Positions 1-5,599 of a DNA stretch of 6,817 bases are shown piece after piece (position 1 is the stretch's first letter; the number at the start of each line of letters is the position of its first letter). The notes under the pieces were generated by a model. The model did no database searches, was not told the origin of the DNA, and was given only the letters and a program-made list of their open reading frames with translations. Location of the stretch: IMG/VR virus record IMGVR_UViG_3300009622_000013; one strand, given 5' to 3'. The translations under genes and the position numbers were made by a program. The DNA comes from a virus. Taxonomy: Duplodnaviria > Heunggongvirae > Uroviricota > Caudoviricetes.

Positions 1-197
1 TATTTGTAGTATCTCTTTTTGGAATATCTCAATTTTATGTGTCATTTTTCGGGGAAGGATATAGAGATTTAAGCAAGCATTTATTTGGAATGTATTTTTC
101 GTTCGACCTTTGCTTATACATAACAGTCGTTTTTTTAATTTATAAAATAATTCAAAGAAATCAAGACAATAGCGATGTAAAGCACTAAGTTTAAATT

Positions 198-217
198 GCG
201 CGCCAATCATGGCGCGC
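198..217 (-). terminator. Candidate stem-loop just 3' of the minus-strand ORF stop; weak intrinsic terminator
   Basis: Perfect 8-bp GC-rich stem GCGCGCCA (198-205) / TGGCGCGC (210-217) with loop ATCA. On the minus strand it is followed by AATTTAAACTT, only a moderate U-tract. It lies 5 nt beyond the stop at 223-225. Confidence 0.3.
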
Positions 218-222
218 ACAAG

Positions 223-504
223 CTATAATACCAACCTAATTTCTCCTCCTCTTAGAGTGACTATATCTCCTGATAGAATTGCGGTATTGACTATCAAATG
301 CCCTGATTCGTTGTTTATTGTAATATCTCCTCTATCTGCAGACGATAACTTAAATGCATCATTGCCCACAACAAACCCCCTCCAGAACCAAGTGCTGATA
401 TTATCATCAACAGTGATAGATACATATACTAACTGATTATCGTTATAAGTGATTCCTGTCTTATACTTAACATAAGGACTTCCACTTTGATTCTCGATAG
501 ACAC
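223..504 (-). CDS. C-terminal fragment of an unassigned protein, possibly tail-fibre-like; no convincing start, likely a remnant
   Basis: The 93-aa minus-strand ORF reads like a real beta-rich protein (..GITYNDNQLVYVSITVDDN..GDITINNESGHLIVNTAILSGDIVTLRGGEI), whereas the overlapping plus-strand ORF 209..436 is low-complexity. It begins with a non-ATG codon at the junction with the tfaS fragment and is followed by the hairpin at 198-217. Confidence 0.3.
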   Translation of the reverse strand: MSIENQSGSPYVKYKTGITYNDNQLVYVSITVDDNISTWFWRGFVVGNDAFKLSSADRGDITINNESGHLIVNTAILSGDIVTLRGGEIRLVL

Positions 505-528
505 ATAACATCCAGGGGTTATGTTTGT

Positions 529-831
529 ATGCGTCCCGCGACTATCGCCCCATTAACGCCATACGATAAATGGGATGGTGAGAAATGGGTGACGGATACC
601 GAGGCACAGCATAGCGTCGCAGTAGATGCAGCAGAAGCACAGCGCCAGTCGCTGATTGATACTGCAATGGCTTCCATTAGTCTGATTCAACTGAAATTAC
701 AGGCTGGGCGGAAGCTGATGCAGGCAGAGACCTCCCGACTTAACACTGTGCTGGATTACATTGACGCGGTGACGGCAACAGATACCAGCACCGCGCCGGA
801 TGTCATCTGGCCTGAACTGCCGGAGGAGTAG
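529..831 (+). pseudogene. tfaS: Tail fibre assembly protein, N-terminally truncated fragment
   Basis: The C-terminal portion (..EAQHSVAVDAAEAQRQSLIDTAMASISLIQ..LDYIDAVTATDTSTAPDVIWPELPEE) matches the conserved C-terminal domain pattern of phage Tfa proteins, and is paralogous to the C-terminus of the convergent yfdK product. First ATG is at 529; the track ORF from 487 starts at TTG. The ~80 N-terminal residues of a full Tfa are missing. Confidence 0.6.
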
Positions 832-1243
832 GCCATTCAATATCTGGCGCACTGGAAGTATCGACCAGCTCCAGTGCGTCCAGATAATCCAGCCACAAAT
901 TATATTGCGCCAGTTCCTCACCTTTCAGACGACCAATAGCCGCTTTACCAGCCCATTGTTTACTGTTCATATAATCGTTGGCCTGATTAATCAATTGCTG
1001 CTTTTTCAGTTCGGCTGCAGCAATCTGTTCCTCATGTGTTGGTGGTGGAATTTCAGACCATGCAGGAAAACCATTTTCTCCAGCGATACGGATTTTTCCT
1101 TTCGGCGGTAATCCGGAAAACTCAATATACACTTGCTCATCAACTTCAACAGCATCATCTGGCCATGAGCCAGCTTGCGTGTAATCCTCTTTCATCTCCA
1201 AGGGATAGAAAGAGTTTGTAGTCGCGGAATATATGTAATTCAT
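803..1243 (-). CDS. yfdK: Phage tail fibre assembly protein (Tfa family), 146 aa
   Basis: ATG at 1241-1243 is preceded by GGAGTG on the minus strand. The protein ends ..LWLDYLDALELVDTSSAPDIEWPTPPAVQAR, the Tfa C-terminal signature. It sits immediately downstream of the tail-fibre fragment, the usual stf-tfa order. Length and sequence agree with my recollection of K-12 YfdK. Confidence 0.8.
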   Translation of the reverse strand: MNYIYSATTNSFYPLEMKEDYTQAGSWPDDAVEVDEQVYIEFSGLPPKGKIRIAGENGFPAWSEIPPPTHEEQIAAAELKKQQLINQANDYMNSKQWAGKAAIGRLKGEELAQYNLWLDYLDALELVDTSSAPDIEWPTPPAVQAR

Positions 1244-1269
1244 TTTTCACTCCATAAAGTTAAAAGAAA

Positions 1270-1992
1270 TTAACACCCTAATGCGAAAAATGAAGCACCG
1301 ATACCGGGTACGCCTGCTCTGGAAATAAATTTCACCGGGTCCTGGTTATAACCGGCACAAGCTATATAGCCAACATTTGCACTGCCGGGAGTGTAATCCT
1401 GAGTCGCAAATACCCGCAGACATCTATTCGGAAATGCAATCGGAAAATAGGTTACTGTGTCCTGAGACGTCAGCGGAACATCAATTGGCCCCCATTGAAT
1501 AATTAAACCGGATGGCAATTTTTGATATCCAGGAACTGAAGCAGAAAGCATAAAACTACCCATATCAGGTATCTGATTCGCCCCTGTCCCTACATTTCTT
1601 TTAGCCGCTTCTCCCAAACCAAGGTTTTCGAGAGCCTTTTGCACCGTGCCGTCCAATTTGATATCGCCAAACGGATTCTTGCGGCTTAACAGCAGCGCAC
1701 GAAGCGCGGTAAGCAGCTGGTCATGCCGCCCCTTCTCCAGGCTGGCACCGGAGGCCTCCACAACGCTGCAAAGCTCCTCCTGCAACATGTCAAAGTAGTC
1801 ATCATCCAGATCGGTGGCAGGCGTGCCGGTCTGGGGGTTACCACGGGTACGGGGGATTACCAAAGGCAGCACCTTTAAGCTCCGCAAGACGTTCTGACCA
1901 GTCATGCGCCAGCGCGTTGTCTTCCGCAGTGTAATACGCGGCACATTTGGCGTTATCACCATCAGTAAACAGATCCAGAACAAACGGGCCAA
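1270..1992 (-). pseudogene. yfdL: Tail fibre protein C-terminal fragment; the real coding part is probably about 1270-1840, with the upstream ORF portion overlapping yfdM out of frame
   Basis: The 240-aa ORF has a C-terminal ~190 aa that is tail-fibre-like (..[64 protein letters not shown]..). Its N-terminal ~50 codons lie over the yfdM 3' end in another frame and look non-native. It is followed 27 nt later by the tfa gene yfdK. Confidence 0.55.
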
Positions 1993-2113
1993 ACAGGGTG
2001 TTAATTCCCCAGAAAATGTTGTCCGGCGTGCGCCACTGATCGCCCACTTCCTTCAGTTCATGGGCTGGTTTGTTCCGCAGCTCCACCAGCGCCTGGCAAT
2101 ATTTATTACTCAT
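1838..2113 (-). CDS. yfdM: Truncated phage Dam-family DNA N6-adenine methyltransferase, N-terminal fragment ending just after the NPPY motif
   Basis: The product [91 protein letters not shown] carries the W-R-T-P .. NPPY pattern of phage Dam methylases but stops 2 residues after NPPY. The ATG at 2111-2113 overlaps the yfdN stop (TAATG). The track ORF starts 11 codons upstream at a non-ATG codon. Confidence 0.6.
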
Positions 2114-2607
2114 TAAGCCCCCACGTAATTCCCTGAGAGATACCACTCTTCACCTGATGCAGCCCGCTTACTGCTTTTCCGTAAACACCGTTCACGACGC
2201 GCCAGAAAATTGTTTCGTTCTGGCTGGGAGTGGCTTTCACGGAATGCCGCCATCCACACCGTTGCAGCACGACGGTATAAGCCCCTGGACTCCAGTTCTT
2301 CCGCCTGGCGGGTCAGGCACAAAATCACCCGCGGGTCGTTAGTGCCGACATAGAAATTGCGCACAGGTCTGGTTTCACGAACTGGTTGTGGTTCCGGATC
2401 CTGCGCTCTCTCAGTCAGGCGCGGGAAATGTCTGTGTGTATCTCCTTCACAACGGTGAGCCACACGCCCACTCTGACGTAACTTGCTTGCTGACTGCAGA
2501 ACGCGCTGCCGTGAGTAACCTGCAAAAGCATCCGCAATGTCTCCGGAAGTACAGCCCGGATGGGCTTCAATGAATTTCTGAACGTCATTCAAAAGACTCA
2601 TGCTCAC
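2113..2607 (-). CDS. yfdN: Prophage regulatory protein, PerC-like C-terminal region (recollection)
   Basis: A 164-aa ORF starting at GTG 2605-2607, which overlaps the yfdO stop as GTGA; an in-frame ATG lies 2 codons downstream. The C-terminal region (LCLTRQAEELESRGLYRRAATVWMAAFRESHSQPERNNFLARRERCLRKSS) resembles PerC-type activators. It is arranged like an operon with yfdO and yfdM. Confidence 0.7.
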   Translation of the reverse strand: MSMSLLNDVQKFIEAHPGCTSGDIADAFAGYSRQRVLQSASKLRQSGRVAHRCEGDTHRHFPRLTERAQDPEPQPVRETRPVRNFYVGTNDPRVILCLTRQAEELESRGLYRRAATVWMAAFRESHSQPERNNFLARRERCLRKSSKRAASGEEWYLSGNYVGA

Positions 2608-2972
2608 CCCCTGAATCCTGCCGGGATCTGGCTGTAGTCCACATTGTCGTAACTGGCTTTGAAGTACGGGTCTTCGCGTTTTTCTGTGTACGTGCTGACG
2701 GACGGCGATAAGCGCAGGGAAAGCTCATCCCATTTTTCCCGCAGCTTCGACGGGCTGAGCACGTTACGGCACCAGAACGGATCGCGGCTGACGCGGCTGT
2801 ACATCTCGCAGATTTGTTTGTGAGTACGACCATCCTGCACACACATCAGGCGAATTTCGTTTGCCCAGGCTGTCCAGTTCGGTTCTTTGGGACGAACCAC
2901 CTCGCCGTCACATTCGGCGGCCTGCTCGTACAGGGCGATGATTTTTTTCCAGAGCCACTGTGCGCAGGTCAA
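2604..2972 (-). CDS. yfdO: Phage replication protein O-like remnant, 122 aa (defective replication initiator)
   Basis: The 122-aa ORF MTCAQWLWKKIIALYEQAAECDGEVVRPKEPNWTAWANEIRLMCVQDGRTHKQICEMY.. matches my recollection of K-12 YfdO, annotated as a defective O-like protein. The iteron array lies directly upstream. Confidence 0.65.
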   Translation of the reverse strand: MTCAQWLWKKIIALYEQAAECDGEVVRPKEPNWTAWANEIRLMCVQDGRTHKQICEMYSRVSRDPFWCRNVLSPSKLREKWDELSLRLSPSVSTYTEKREDPYFKASYDNVDYSQIPAGFRG

Positions 2973-3329
2973 ATCATCCTGCGTTCCCCACTGGCGCTTT
3001 TTAGGGCTGAATACAACCGCATCAGGATGGCGAGTTAAAAAATCCTGTTCATCCGTCTGCGTGTCCGGTTGCGAAGCGTCCGGACGAGAAGGTTTTTTAT
3101 CTGACGGATCATGTTTTGATTTTACTGACGGATCCCCGCCAGATTCTGACGGGTGAAAACCCGATTTTTTGCCAGATTTCGACGCATCAAATTTTGACGG
3201 GTCAGATTTTGATGCGTCAGATTTTGACGGGTCAGAGTCTGACAGTTGAGAAAATGCCGCTGCCTGAAGCTTCGCAACGTTAAGCTGATAAACATTCGAC
3301 GCATTGCGGTTATGATGAGGAGCAGCAAA
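2973..3329. promoter_or_regulatory. Divergent intergenic control region between yfdO (minus) and yfdP (plus); contains the iteron array and presumably divergent promoters
   Basis: A 357-bp non-coding gap between divergently oriented genes. GAGGAG sits 8 nt before the yfdP ATG at 3330. Exact -35/-10 elements could not be assigned with confidence by eye. Confidence 0.4.
3171..3245. repeat. Five tandem 15-bp iterons (consensus GTCAGATTTTGAYGS) with degenerate copies upstream from about 3100; putative ori or operator repeats
   Basis: Units read directly in register: 3171 GCCAGATTTCGACGC, 3186 ATCAAATTTTGACGG, 3201 GTCAGATTTTGATGC, 3216 GTCAGATTTTGACGG, 3231 GTCAGAGTCTGACAG. The last has internal dyad symmetry (GTCAGA-G-TCTGAC). 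Further TGACGG-containing copies occur at 3102, 3126 and 3147. Confidence 0.6.
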
Positions 3330-3692
3330 ATGGCTAGCGAACGCAGTACTGATGTGCAGGCATTTATCGGGGAGCTGGACGGCGGCGTATTTGAAACCAA
3401 AATCGGCGCAGTTCTCAGTGAAGTCGCTTCCGGTGTGATGAACACGAAAACCAAAGGTAAGGTCTCACTCAACCTGGAAATCGAACCATTTGATGAGAAC
3501 CGTCTGAAAATCAAACACAAACTCTCATATGTTCGCCCGACTAACCGTGGGAAAATTTCCGAAGAAGACACCACCGAAACGCCGATGTATGTCAATCGCG
3601 GTGGTCGCCTGACTATTCTGCAGGAAGACCAGGGACAATTACTGACTCTTGCCGGTGAGCCTGACGGAAAACTCCGCGCAGCAGGTCATTAA
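3330..3692 (+). CDS. yfdP: Prophage protein of unknown function, 120 aa
   Basis: ATG at 3330 is preceded by GAGGAG. The product MASERSTDVQAFIGELDGGVFETKIGAVLSEV.. is protein-like. The track ORF from 3246 adds 28 low-complexity residues upstream with no ribosome binding site. Sequence matches my recollection of K-12 YfdP. Confidence 0.7.
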   Translation: MASERSTDVQAFIGELDGGVFETKIGAVLSEVASGVMNTKTKGKVSLNLEIEPFDENRLKIKHKLSYVRPTNRGKISEEDTTETPMYVNRGGRLTILQEDQGQLLTLAGEPDGKLRAAGH

Positions 3693-3757
3693 TATCATTC
3701 TTAATTAACTAATTATTTATCTCATCACTGAATATCTTAATATAGTGAGGACTTATT

Positions 3758-4582
3758 ATGTCTCAGAACTTAGACGCAACCGCAATTAATCAAATCCATG
3801 CCCTTATTTCTGCTCAGGGTGTTAATGAAATTATCAGTAAGATTGGTGCCGATGCTGTGGCATTGCCTGAGAATTTCCGCATTCATGATCTGGAAAAATT
3901 TAATTTAAATCGCTTCCGTTTCCGTGGTGCGCTTTCCACTGCCAGCATCGATGACTTTACCCGTTATTCTAAAGATCTTGCAGATGAAGGCACCCGCTGC
4001 TTTATCGATGCTGATAATATGCGTGCCGTCAGTGTGCTTAACCTGGGTACTATTGATGAACCAGGTCACGCAGATAACACCGCCACTCTCAAACTGAAAA
4101 AGACAGCACCGTTCTCTGCCCTGTTGTCTGTTAACGGCGAGCGTAACTCCCAGAAATCACTGGCAGAATGGATTGAAGACTGGGCCGACTACCTTGTGGG
4201 CTTTGATGCTAATGGTGACGCCATTCAGGCAACAAAAGCGGCTGCGGCAATCCGTAAAATCACGATTGAAGCAAACCAGACCGCTGATTTTGAAGATAAT
4301 GACTTCAGCGGCAAACGCTCCCTGATGGAATCTGTCGAAGCGAAGACCAAAGACATTATGCCAGTGGCATTTGAATTTAAATGCGTTCCGTTTGAAGGTC
4401 TGAAAGAACGTCCGTTTAAATTACGCCTCAGCATTATCACTGGCGATCGTCCTGTACTGGTTCTGCGCATTATTCAGCTGGAAGCGGTGCAGGAAGATAT
4501 GGCTAACGAATTTCGTGATCTGCTTGTTGAGAAATTCAAAGACAGCAAAGTAGAAACCTTTATTGGTACTTTCACCGCCTGA
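3758..4582 (+). CDS. yfdQ: Prophage protein YfdQ, 274 aa, uncharacterised (DUF-type)
   Basis: A 274-aa ORF with ATG at 3758 preceded by GTGAGGA. The product [53 protein letters not shown].. is recognised from memory as K-12 YfdQ. It is followed by a strong hairpin. Confidence 0.85.
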
Positions 4583-4594
4583 TTTCATTACTGC

Positions 4595-4620
4595 AAATGC
4601 CCCTGCGGGGGCATTTATGG
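4595..4620 (+). terminator. Candidate intrinsic terminator or attenuator downstream of yfdQ
   Basis: Perfect 9-bp stem AAATGCCCC (4595-4603) / GGGGCATTT (4608-4616) with loop TGCG, followed by ATGG. The 3' arm ends in UUU. It may act in both directions. Confidence 0.45.
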
Positions 4621-4709
4621 AAACGTAATTAACTCAATAATCACCGGATGGTGAGGGCTTCCTTTTACCCAAACTCAGCGCGGTGCAGCGCATATACGTG
4701 GAGAACAAA

Positions 4710-5246
4710 ATGTCATTTATTAAAACTTTTTCCGGGAAGCATTTTTATTATGACAAGATAAATAAAGACGACATCGTGATTAACGATATCGCGGTTTCCC
4801 TTTCAAATATCTGCCGCTTTGCCGGTCATCTTTCTCACTTCTACAGTGTCGCCCAACATGCGGTGCTTTGCAGCCAGCTGGTGCCGCAGGAATTTGCTTT
4901 TGAAGCATTAATGCATGATGCAACAGAAGCGTATTGCCAGGACATCCCCGCACCACTGAAACGCCTTCTTCCTGACTATAAACGGATGGAAGAAAAAATA
5001 GATGCAGTAATCCGTGAGAAATACGGGTTACCTCCTGTTATGAGCACGCCAGTGAAATATGCCGATCTCATTATGCTGGCAACCGAACGCCGTGATCTCG
5101 GGCTTGATGATGGCTCTTTCTGGCCTGTACTGGAAGGCATCCCGGCAACAGAGATGTTCAACGTGATTCCACTGGCACCGGGTCATGCCTACGGGATGTT
5201 TATGGAACGTTTTAACGATTTATCGGAGTTACGCAAATGCGCATGA
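4710..5246 (+). CDS. yfdR: HD-domain phosphohydrolase (5'-deoxynucleotidase family), 178 aa
   Basis: ATG at 4710 (MSFIKTF..) is preceded by GGAGA; the track ORF from 4683 starts at a non-ATG codon without a ribosome binding site. The HD-domain signature is present: H40, H43, then H69-D70 (codons 4914-4919, LMHDATEAY). The stop overlaps the yfdS start region. Confidence 0.8.
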   Translation: MSFIKTFSGKHFYYDKINKDDIVINDIAVSLSNICRFAGHLSHFYSVAQHAVLCSQLVPQEFAFEALMHDATEAYCQDIPAPLKRLLPDYKRMEEKIDAVIREKYGLPPVMSTPVKYADLIMLATERRDLGLDDGSFWPVLEGIPATEMFNVIPLAPGHAYGMFMERFNDLSELRKCA

Positions 5247-5599
5247 ATGTTTTCGAAATGGAAGGGTTTCTTCGCGGGAAATGTGTACCGCGAGATCTGA
5301 AAGTGAACGAAACAAATGCTGAGTACCTGGTACGTAAATTCGACGCGCTTGAAGCTAAATGTGCGGCACTGGAAAACAAAATAATACCAGTGTCAGCTGA
5401 ACTGCCACCAGCAAATGAAAGTGTTCTGTTATTTGATGCTAACGGAGAAGGCTGGCTGATTGGCTGGCGTTCTCTCTGGTACACCTGGGGACAAAAAGAA
5501 ACCGGAGAATGGCAGTGGACATTTCAGGTTGGGGACCTTGAAAACGTCAATATCACTCACTGGGCAGTAATGCCAAAAGCACCGGAGGCTGGAGCATAA
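5237..5599 (+). CDS. yfdS: Prophage protein of unknown function, 120 aa
   Basis: ATG at 5237 is preceded by GGAG and overlaps the yfdR 3' end (ATGCGCATGA); its TAA stop overlaps the yfdT ATG (TAATG at 5597-5601). Sequence MRMNVFEMEGFLRGKCVPRDLK.. matches my recollection of K-12 YfdS. Confidence 0.75.
   Translation: MRMNVFEMEGFLRGKCVPRDLKVNETNAEYLVRKFDALEAKCAALENKIIPVSAELPPANESVLLFDANGEGWLIGWRSLWYTWGQKETGEWQWTFQVGDLENVNITHWAVMPKAPEAGA

Follow-up and report, generated by a model that had tools for sequence, protein, structure and literature searches.

Genes and features at the locus

The sequence analysed here, referred to as the window, is a stretch of 6,817 nt that matches the genome of E. 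coli K-12 MG1655 (NC_000913.3, positions 2470275-2477091) with 100% identity. It is enclosed by an annotated feature, 'cryptic prophage CPS-53' (KpLE1), whose position between argW/intS and dsdC was borne out. The window comprises the 3' end of yfdI, yodE, tfaS (a pseudogene), yfdK, yfdL (a pseudogene), yfdM, yfdN, yfdO, yfdP-yfdT, ypdJ, torI, an attR remnant and dsdC. The features that bear on the present analysis are the following:

803-1243, minus strand: yfdK, an intact tail-fibre assembly gene downstream of yfdL (Pfam Caudo_TAP, E = 2e-39)
1270-1849, minus strand: yfdL remnant (b2355), tail-fibre-derived DNA, namely codons 22-213 and the stop of a gp53-like short tail fibre
1833-1862, no strand: imperfect direct repeat around the first deletion junction, with GGGGGTTACCA at 1833-1843 (tail-fibre side) and GGGGATTACCA at 1852-1862 (Dam side)
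1838-1846, minus strand: last two codons and stop of yfdM, CCG TGG TAA, which are out-of-frame tail-fibre DNA by three-frame translation across the junction
1838-2113, minus strand: yfdM (b2356), 91 aa from ATG, or 102 aa from an upstream GTG at 2146
1847-1849, no strand: crossover of deletion 1, a 3-nt microhomology GTA (TAC on the minus strand, the Tyr codon of NPPY) common to the tail-fibre and Dam parents
1850-1992, minus strand: out-of-frame extension of the tail-fibre frame over Dam DNA, holding ATG 1905 and TTG 1992
1850-2113, minus strand: yfdM DNA of Dam origin, codons 1-88 (the TAC at 1847-1849, which is codon 89 for Tyr, being shared), equivalent to the N-terminal 41% of a phage N6-adenine methyltransferase of 217 aa
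2113-2607, minus strand: yfdN (PerC family), an intact gene that lies upstream of yfdM, shares its operon orientation and has a stop overlapping the yfdM start
3311-3312, no strand: junction of the second deletion, where the flanks overlap by 2 nt and 3,228 bp present in phage vB_EcoM-720R4 are absent

At its 5' end, yfdM is unaltered in the sense that it keeps its native start, and the ATGA overlap at 2113 provides translational coupling to the intact yfdN. At its 3' end, PGAP describes the gene as 'incomplete; missing C-terminus', and the annotation of NC_000913.3 lists yfdL as a pseudogene at 1270-1788.

Reading frames across the yfdM-yfdL boundary

The product of yfdM ends in ...GNPPY-P-W-stop. 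That is, it stops two residues after the NPPY motif, which occupies residues 86-89 and is invariant in the homologue alignment. The next coding sequence on the minus strand is tail-fibre-like and in another frame; this follows from three-frame translation and from a match of YfdL to the Pfam family Gp53-like_C (PF21882) in full, i.e., over 84 of 84 profile positions, with E about 4e-18 to 5e-18. Read in the tail-fibre frame, the end of yfdM is ACC CGT GGT AAC, or T R G N, and T-R-G-N-P-Q... corresponds to residues 22 onward of the intact protein. Read in the Dam frame, the same bases are CCG TGG TAA, or Pro-Trp-stop. The two genes are thus joined out of frame, and no fusion protein results.

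YfdL lacks the native N-terminus and start of the tail fibre (MHRIDTKTAQKDKFGAGKNGF), which are conserved in intact relatives, and has out-of-frame Dam DNA in their place. The tail-fibre frame stays open backwards over this dam DNA, past ATG 1905 to TTG 1992, so that a mechanical ORF spans 1270-1992 and overlaps yfdM at exactly 1838-1992. The extension amounts to 19 residues from ATG 1905, or 48 from TTG 1992, and aligns to nothing in intact tail fibres; judged by these alignments, the interval 1850-1992 is an accidental ORF without homology.

These observations bear out three points of an initial annotation made from the DNA letters, namely the position of the yfdM stop relative to NPPY, the tail-fibre character and different frame of the following coding sequence, and the overlap of the extended yfdL ORF with the 3' end of yfdM. 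Two of its other terms need qualification. It had described the junction as fusing a methyltransferase to a tail-fibre fragment; two genes are indeed joined there, but they do not encode a Dam-tail-fibre fusion protein, and the tail-fibre gene, while truncated, is nearly complete, having lost only 21 of its 213 codons.

In many K-12 genomes, PGAP calls the interval 1270-1905 (minus strand) as a 211-aa 'gp53-like domain-containing protein' (WP_042405267.1), the first 19 residues of which are translated from out-of-frame methylase DNA. With its start in such DNA, this entry should not be handled as a native protein.

The breakpoint of deletion 1

We searched for the breakpoint by megablast of window positions 1200-2700 against 5,426 complete E. 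coli genomes. The search gave two kinds of partial match: among the non-K-12 matches listed that reach the boundary, those on the Dam side start at 1847, and those on the tail-fibre side end at 1849. In three-way alignments, an identity of ~98-100% turns to random sequence within 3 nt, on both sides. Because tail-fibre homology reaches 1849 and Dam homology begins at 1847, the crossover lies within GTA 1847-1849. Alignment to full-length relatives, which the initial annotation had proposed as a check, thus places the breakpoint to within three nucleotides. Across the junction the three sequences read as follows:

Tail-fibre parent: ...GGGGGTTACCACGGGTA, then AAACCG...
Dam parent: ...GCGCGGCTGTA, then (T/C)GGGGGATTACC...
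K-12: ...GGGGGTTACCACGGGTACGGGGGATTACC...

The break at the junction is far beyond chance. The 3-nt microhomology by itself is only mildly non-random, with p about 0.05 for random breakpoints.

Base 1850 is C in K-12 and T in the first relatives examined, and was considered as a possible junctional mutation. This was rejected: intact dam alleles with C at this position (a synonymous CCG Pro codon) exist in natural isolates and match the reconstructed intact sequence perfectly. The junction therefore needs no additional mutation.

The crossover is bracketed by an imperfect direct repeat, GGGGGTTACCA and GGGGATTACCA, with one copy from each parent, both encoding Gly-Asn-Pro on the minus (coding) strand. 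About 0.3% of random breakpoint pairs would show a match of 10/11 between the retained flanks; this figure is post hoc. We considered this repeat as the mediator of deletion 1 and set it aside, since neither copy was lost and the repeat does not stand in register with the crossover.

A microhomology-mediated deletion is recognised by flanks that are colinear with one intact relative, by a sharp loss of identity, and by a few shared bases at the crossover, all of which were found here. A microhomology of 3 nt is what illegitimate, RecA-independent joining typically leaves behind, and we infer that the mechanism was microhomology-mediated illegitimate recombination.

Content of the deleted interval

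The genome of phage vB_EcoM-720R4 (ON470603.1; 35,056 bp) is colinear with the window, with ~98% identity on both sides of the junction by BLAST. The aligned segments are:

Window 541-1849: vB_EcoM-720R4 313-1621, 98.1% identity
Window 1847-3312: vB_EcoM-720R4 26455-27920, 98.0% identity
Window 3311-5587: vB_EcoM-720R4 31147-33423, 97.7% identity

Relative to this phage, deletion 1 amounts to 24,836 bp absent from K-12, with the 3 nt shared. In vB_EcoM-720R4 the interval holds 35 complete genes, from the baseplate to a LexA-like gene, in addition to Dam residues 90-217 and tail-fibre codons 1-21. The functions lost with it are:

Six Mu-like baseplate and tail genes (Mup43-48 equivalents)
Tape measure, tube and sheath
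Head-tail connectors, capsid, protease and portal
Both terminase subunits
Rz/Rz1, endolysin and holin
A second adenine methylase
Nin-type genes, Q, a YdfU/DUF968 protein, KilA-N, RusA and a LexA-like protein

Gene order is the same in Shigella phage SfII and in a dusA-integrated prophage of strain Z1323CEC0012, in which about 24.7 kb separate the Dam boundary from the tail-fibre boundary. An intact CPS-53 with K-12's own gtrS/yodE flank was not found, and the ancestor is therefore reconstructed from mosaic relatives at other attachment sites.

The initial annotation had held that an internal deletion removed the C-terminus of the methyltransferase together with the intervening lysis and morphogenesis genes. 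Both points are supported by nucleotide three-way alignments with colinear intact relatives, namely vB_EcoM-720R4, SfII and the dusA prophage. The deletion had also been put forward as the explanation of the cryptic state of the element. Deletion 1 is enough to make the prophage defective, since no lysis, packaging, head, tail or baseplate genes are left; it is not, however, the sole lesion, as the 3,228-bp deletion at 3311/3312 also makes CPS-53 defective.

YfdM is a truncated methyltransferase

YfdM matches the Pfam Dam family (PF05869) with 82.6-83.1 bits, against a cut-off of 28.1, but covers only positions 3-69 of the 169 in the profile, whereas a full-length relative of 217 aa covers positions 3-167. 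Of the 217 residues of the intact enzyme, 128 are missing from YfdM, and with them all the conserved blocks that follow NPPY. Among 27 aligned homologues (72-98% identity), the near-invariant elements after NPPY are SRA..YITGM, GGRYVFLIKAATSEVWWPE, RGRIGF and GAFFAGA..VFD, and blocks of this region are still recognisable in distant relatives of 170-218 aa. YfdM contains none of the corresponding blocks (SRA...YITGM, LIKAATSExWWPE, RGRxGF and GAFFAGAxxxFD), and so does not constitute a complete domain.

A first homologue search with the 91-aa YfdM as query returned only proteins of at most 158 aa, many labelled 'partial' by their source. These results were therefore unusable as a length distribution, and the search was repeated with the full-length protein and complemented by an exhaustive search of representatives. 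The full-length query gave 1,391 homologues; clusters with thousands of members are 217 aa long, the Cronobacter/Atlantibacter forms are 285-290 aa, and full-length Dam homologues span 170-330 aa overall. In the exhaustive search (1.84 billion representatives), most rows show homology up to YfdM residue 89 and no further, while the proteins themselves run on past it. Two rows reach residue 91, namely P0307, an error-laden K-12 copy, and P0344, a protein of 150 aa that runs well past the motif.

Full-length homologues ending where YfdM ends would indicate a naturally short protein rather than a truncation. Apart from K-12 copies, there were none, and the NPPY-P-W-stop ending was not found outside K-12's own allele among the homologues inspected. 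Three short entries, P0001 and P0075 (both 91 aa) and P0307, were considered as natural short homologues and rejected, being K-12 copies with sequencing or C-to-T conversion errors. In the YfdM copies P0075 and P0307 the changes are systematic, namely P-to-L/S, A-to-V, T-to-I, H-to-Y and R-to-C/W, as would be expected if C-to-T-converted (bisulfite-type) reads had been assembled as native; such entries mimic divergent short homologues. P0292, of 93 aa, ends in ...GNPPYS and thus includes a single residue of the conserved continuation that its 218-aa relative P0311 carries; it is probably a gene fragment.

With the tightly conserved C-terminal 59% of a single domain lost, we infer that the 91-aa YfdM would be unable to act as a methyltransferase.

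Structure prediction was carried out for a 217-aa homologue. The AlphaFold2 model, from a shallow alignment of 28 sequences with at least 72% identity, has a mean pLDDT of 54, and a Foldseek search of the PDB with it yielded nothing significant (best E = 0.05, TM about 0.3). The highest-ranked of these non-significant matches are enriched in N6-adenine methyltransferases such as LlaGI, DrdV, M.TaqI, EcoKI HsdM and CamA. Searches of the PDB with the protein sequence and with a profile found nothing. Structure thus adds little to the case for an inactive YfdM.

Distribution of the junction

As a probe for the junction we used the 48 nt centred on it, of which the part on either side is too short to match a parent alone. 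This 48-mer occurs in 358 of the 5,426 complete E. coli genomes, once in each and in all cases 100% identical. Sixty rows sampled across the ranking were MG1655, W3110, BW25113, DH5alpha, DH10B, MC4100, J53, AB1157 and strains of that kind, or else O16:H48 isolates whose genomes measure 4.5-4.8 Mb; their K-12 lineage was assigned from strain names and genome sizes alone. On this genomic distribution, the junction is seemingly a single event fixed in the K-12 lineage.

At least 80% of window 1-1849 is matched by 362 genomes, whereas 358 carry the junction 48-mer. The difference, of roughly 4 genomes, may be made up of engineered derivatives of K-12, variants with SNPs, or strains with a less-deleted CPS-53.

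Origin of the junction

We regard it as highly probable that the junction is the scar of a single illegitimate-recombination deletion in the ancestor of CPS-53. This ancestor would have been a temperate phage of the SfII/SfIV/vB_EcoM-720R4 type, its early region lambdoid, its head HK97-like and its contractile tail Mu-like. Its gene order, read along the minus strand of the window, would have been O, yfdN, dam, lexA-like, rusA, kilA-N, DUF968, Q, lysis, terminase, head, tail, baseplate, tail fibre and tfa. A break after dam codon 89 would then have been joined to a break after tail-fibre codon 21 at the common TAC (coding strand), with the loss of about 24.8 kb. As a result, yfdM has been left encoding methylase residues 1-89 followed by Pro-Trp and a stop from wrong-frame tail-fibre DNA. 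The tail-fibre gene, in turn, has neither its native start nor a ribosome-binding site, and its frame, open backwards over dam DNA, gives rise to the overlapping ORF.

A different view of the junction is that it created a new gene product, i.e., that the 91-aa YfdM has been kept, or exapted, as a small protein with a function, for example as a helper of phage SW1 that acts by binding and not by methylation. A preprint (bioRxiv 10.1101/413146) reports that yfdM is needed for propagation of the T1-like phage SW1 in BW25113: deletion of yfdM abolishes, and yfdM on a plasmid restores, an SW1-dependent demarcation line, and overproduction of YfdM gives plaques. The gene also retains its native start, its coupling to intact yfdN, and NPPY. 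Nevertheless, with 128 of the 217 residues missing, the 'novel methylase function' favoured by those authors is unlikely as stated, and the preprint leaves the truncation unmentioned. Moreover, the junction is restricted to K-12-like genomes and has one and the same sequence throughout, so that comparison gives no sign of selection. Claims that laboratory strains carry T1-like phages have also been disputed, in a letter, on grounds of contamination. We thus consider this view of YfdM unlikely. Its more specific form, in which a stable 91-aa fragment is now used by the cell or a phage through non-catalytic binding of DNA, AdoMet or a phage protein, invokes a non-catalytic action because over half of the enzyme is missing; it is a long shot, but if true, prophage decay would here have given birth to a gene. 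In any event, the experiments on the 'putative Dam methylase' (bioRxiv 10.1101/413146) may need another explanation or a test of activity, as YfdM is the N-terminal 41% of a 217-aa protein.

The junction might also have arisen by recombination between two resident prophages, or through several successive deletions, in place of one deletion in one phage. This group of phages is highly mosaic: at argW the int/xis/gtr module is found together with structural genes of P22 type, and the tail-fibre module occurs beside a lambda-like early region at torS/torT. In addition, several nested or successive deletions would give the same final junction as one. Against this, both flanks are ~98% identical to a single phage, in the same order and orientation, and this arrangement is repeated in two more intact elements. 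Given colinear flanks in three intact elements, a single deletion is the most parsimonious reading, and an origin by multiple steps or from two prophages is quite improbable.

Finally, that YfdM is naturally short and its overlap with yfdL an ordinary compact arrangement is practically inconceivable, for it has in its favour an intact start codon and an in-frame stop and nothing more, and is refuted by relatives of 170-330 aa and by nucleotide alignments in which the Dam sequence runs past the break in all relatives.

Relation to known prophages and enzymes

The defectiveness of CPS-53 has long been known, and yfdL and yfdM were already flagged as pseudogene and incomplete, respectively; there is accordingly little new biology in the truncation as such. 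The locus described here is the same as CPS-53/KpLE1, with no difference; what is newly added is the exact breakpoint, the microhomology, the content and size of the deletion, and the second junction. A nucleotide-exact map of the 24,836-bp and 3,228-bp deletions shows what a rebuild of an active CPS-53 must restore.

The nearest intact relatives of CPS-53 are Mu-tailed lambdoid phages of the SfII/SfIV/SfV/720R4 group. Phages vB_EcoM-720R4, SfII, SfIV, SfV and PhiR29/PhiR49 resemble CPS-53 in having ~97-98% DNA identity to the surviving segments and the order tfa, tail fibre ... dam, yfdN, O ... yfdP-yfdT. Unlike CPS-53, they are complete, at 35-46 kb, and carry a 217-aa Dam, a tail fibre of 213-216 aa and the full set of lysis and morphogenesis genes. 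They also have other integration and O-antigen modification modules than CPS-53, and K-12 lacks the 24.8 kb and the 3.2 kb. YfdM has the N-terminal half of the PF05869 enzymes (WRTP block, VLDLF and the catalytic-type NPPY), 97-100% identical to that of E. coli prophage enzymes; the family has a conserved C-terminal half, whereas YfdM does not.

The other defective prophages of K-12, i.e., e14, Rac, DLP12 and Qin, likewise have large internal deletions, truncated genes and short-homology junctions, and such remnants may excise by means of an integrase and an excisionase. The process of decay is the same as in CPS-53, while the genes and breakpoints differ, and CPS-53 is mechanistically undistinctive. 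What we describe is ordinary prophage decay, largely flagged already by the reference annotation.

Further lesions and features of CPS-53

The second deletion took the N-terminus of O, the cII-like genes ymfM/ymfL, a cro-like gene, cI and small ORFs. It left yfdO as a C-terminal O fragment adjoining the divergent yfdP. In addition, tfaS lacks its N-terminus at window 540/541. CPS-53 has been reported to excise still, at low frequency.

The initial annotation had recommended a comparison with intact relatives integrated at argW. The one such prophage examined shares the int/xis/gtr module only and is otherwise P22-like, and was uninformative for the breakpoint. It resides in strain CM2010-0578/1 (L009, NZ_CP087564.1 1645045-1685357), is apparently complete, and carries intS, torI and a gtrA/B-type module as in CPS-53, together with P22-like head, DNA-ejection and tailspike genes and a different, 175-aa Dam-family gene in the nin region. 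It illustrates module mosaicism at the attachment site. Because integration and morphogenesis modules are mosaic partners, intact argW relatives are not the right comparators. The prophage of SCU-485, which has a 91%-identical tail fibre, was also considered as a comparator and set aside; it sits at torS/torT and has no yfdM-type dam.

Two other features were observed in the window. At 529-1243, two tail-fibre-assembly genes are convergent and overlap, namely the tfaS pseudogene (plus strand) and yfdK (minus strand), and homology to all relatives begins abruptly at 541. This region resembles what is left of an invertible tail-fibre segment. The intact dusA prophage retains a recombinase and an alternative tail-fibre end (L008, 7554-9239). 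At 3173-3236, inside the remnant of yfdO (replication protein O), a 15-nt unit, CAGATTTTGACGGGT, is repeated 4.3 times; in position and form these repeats resemble the lambdoid ori iterons within the O gene.
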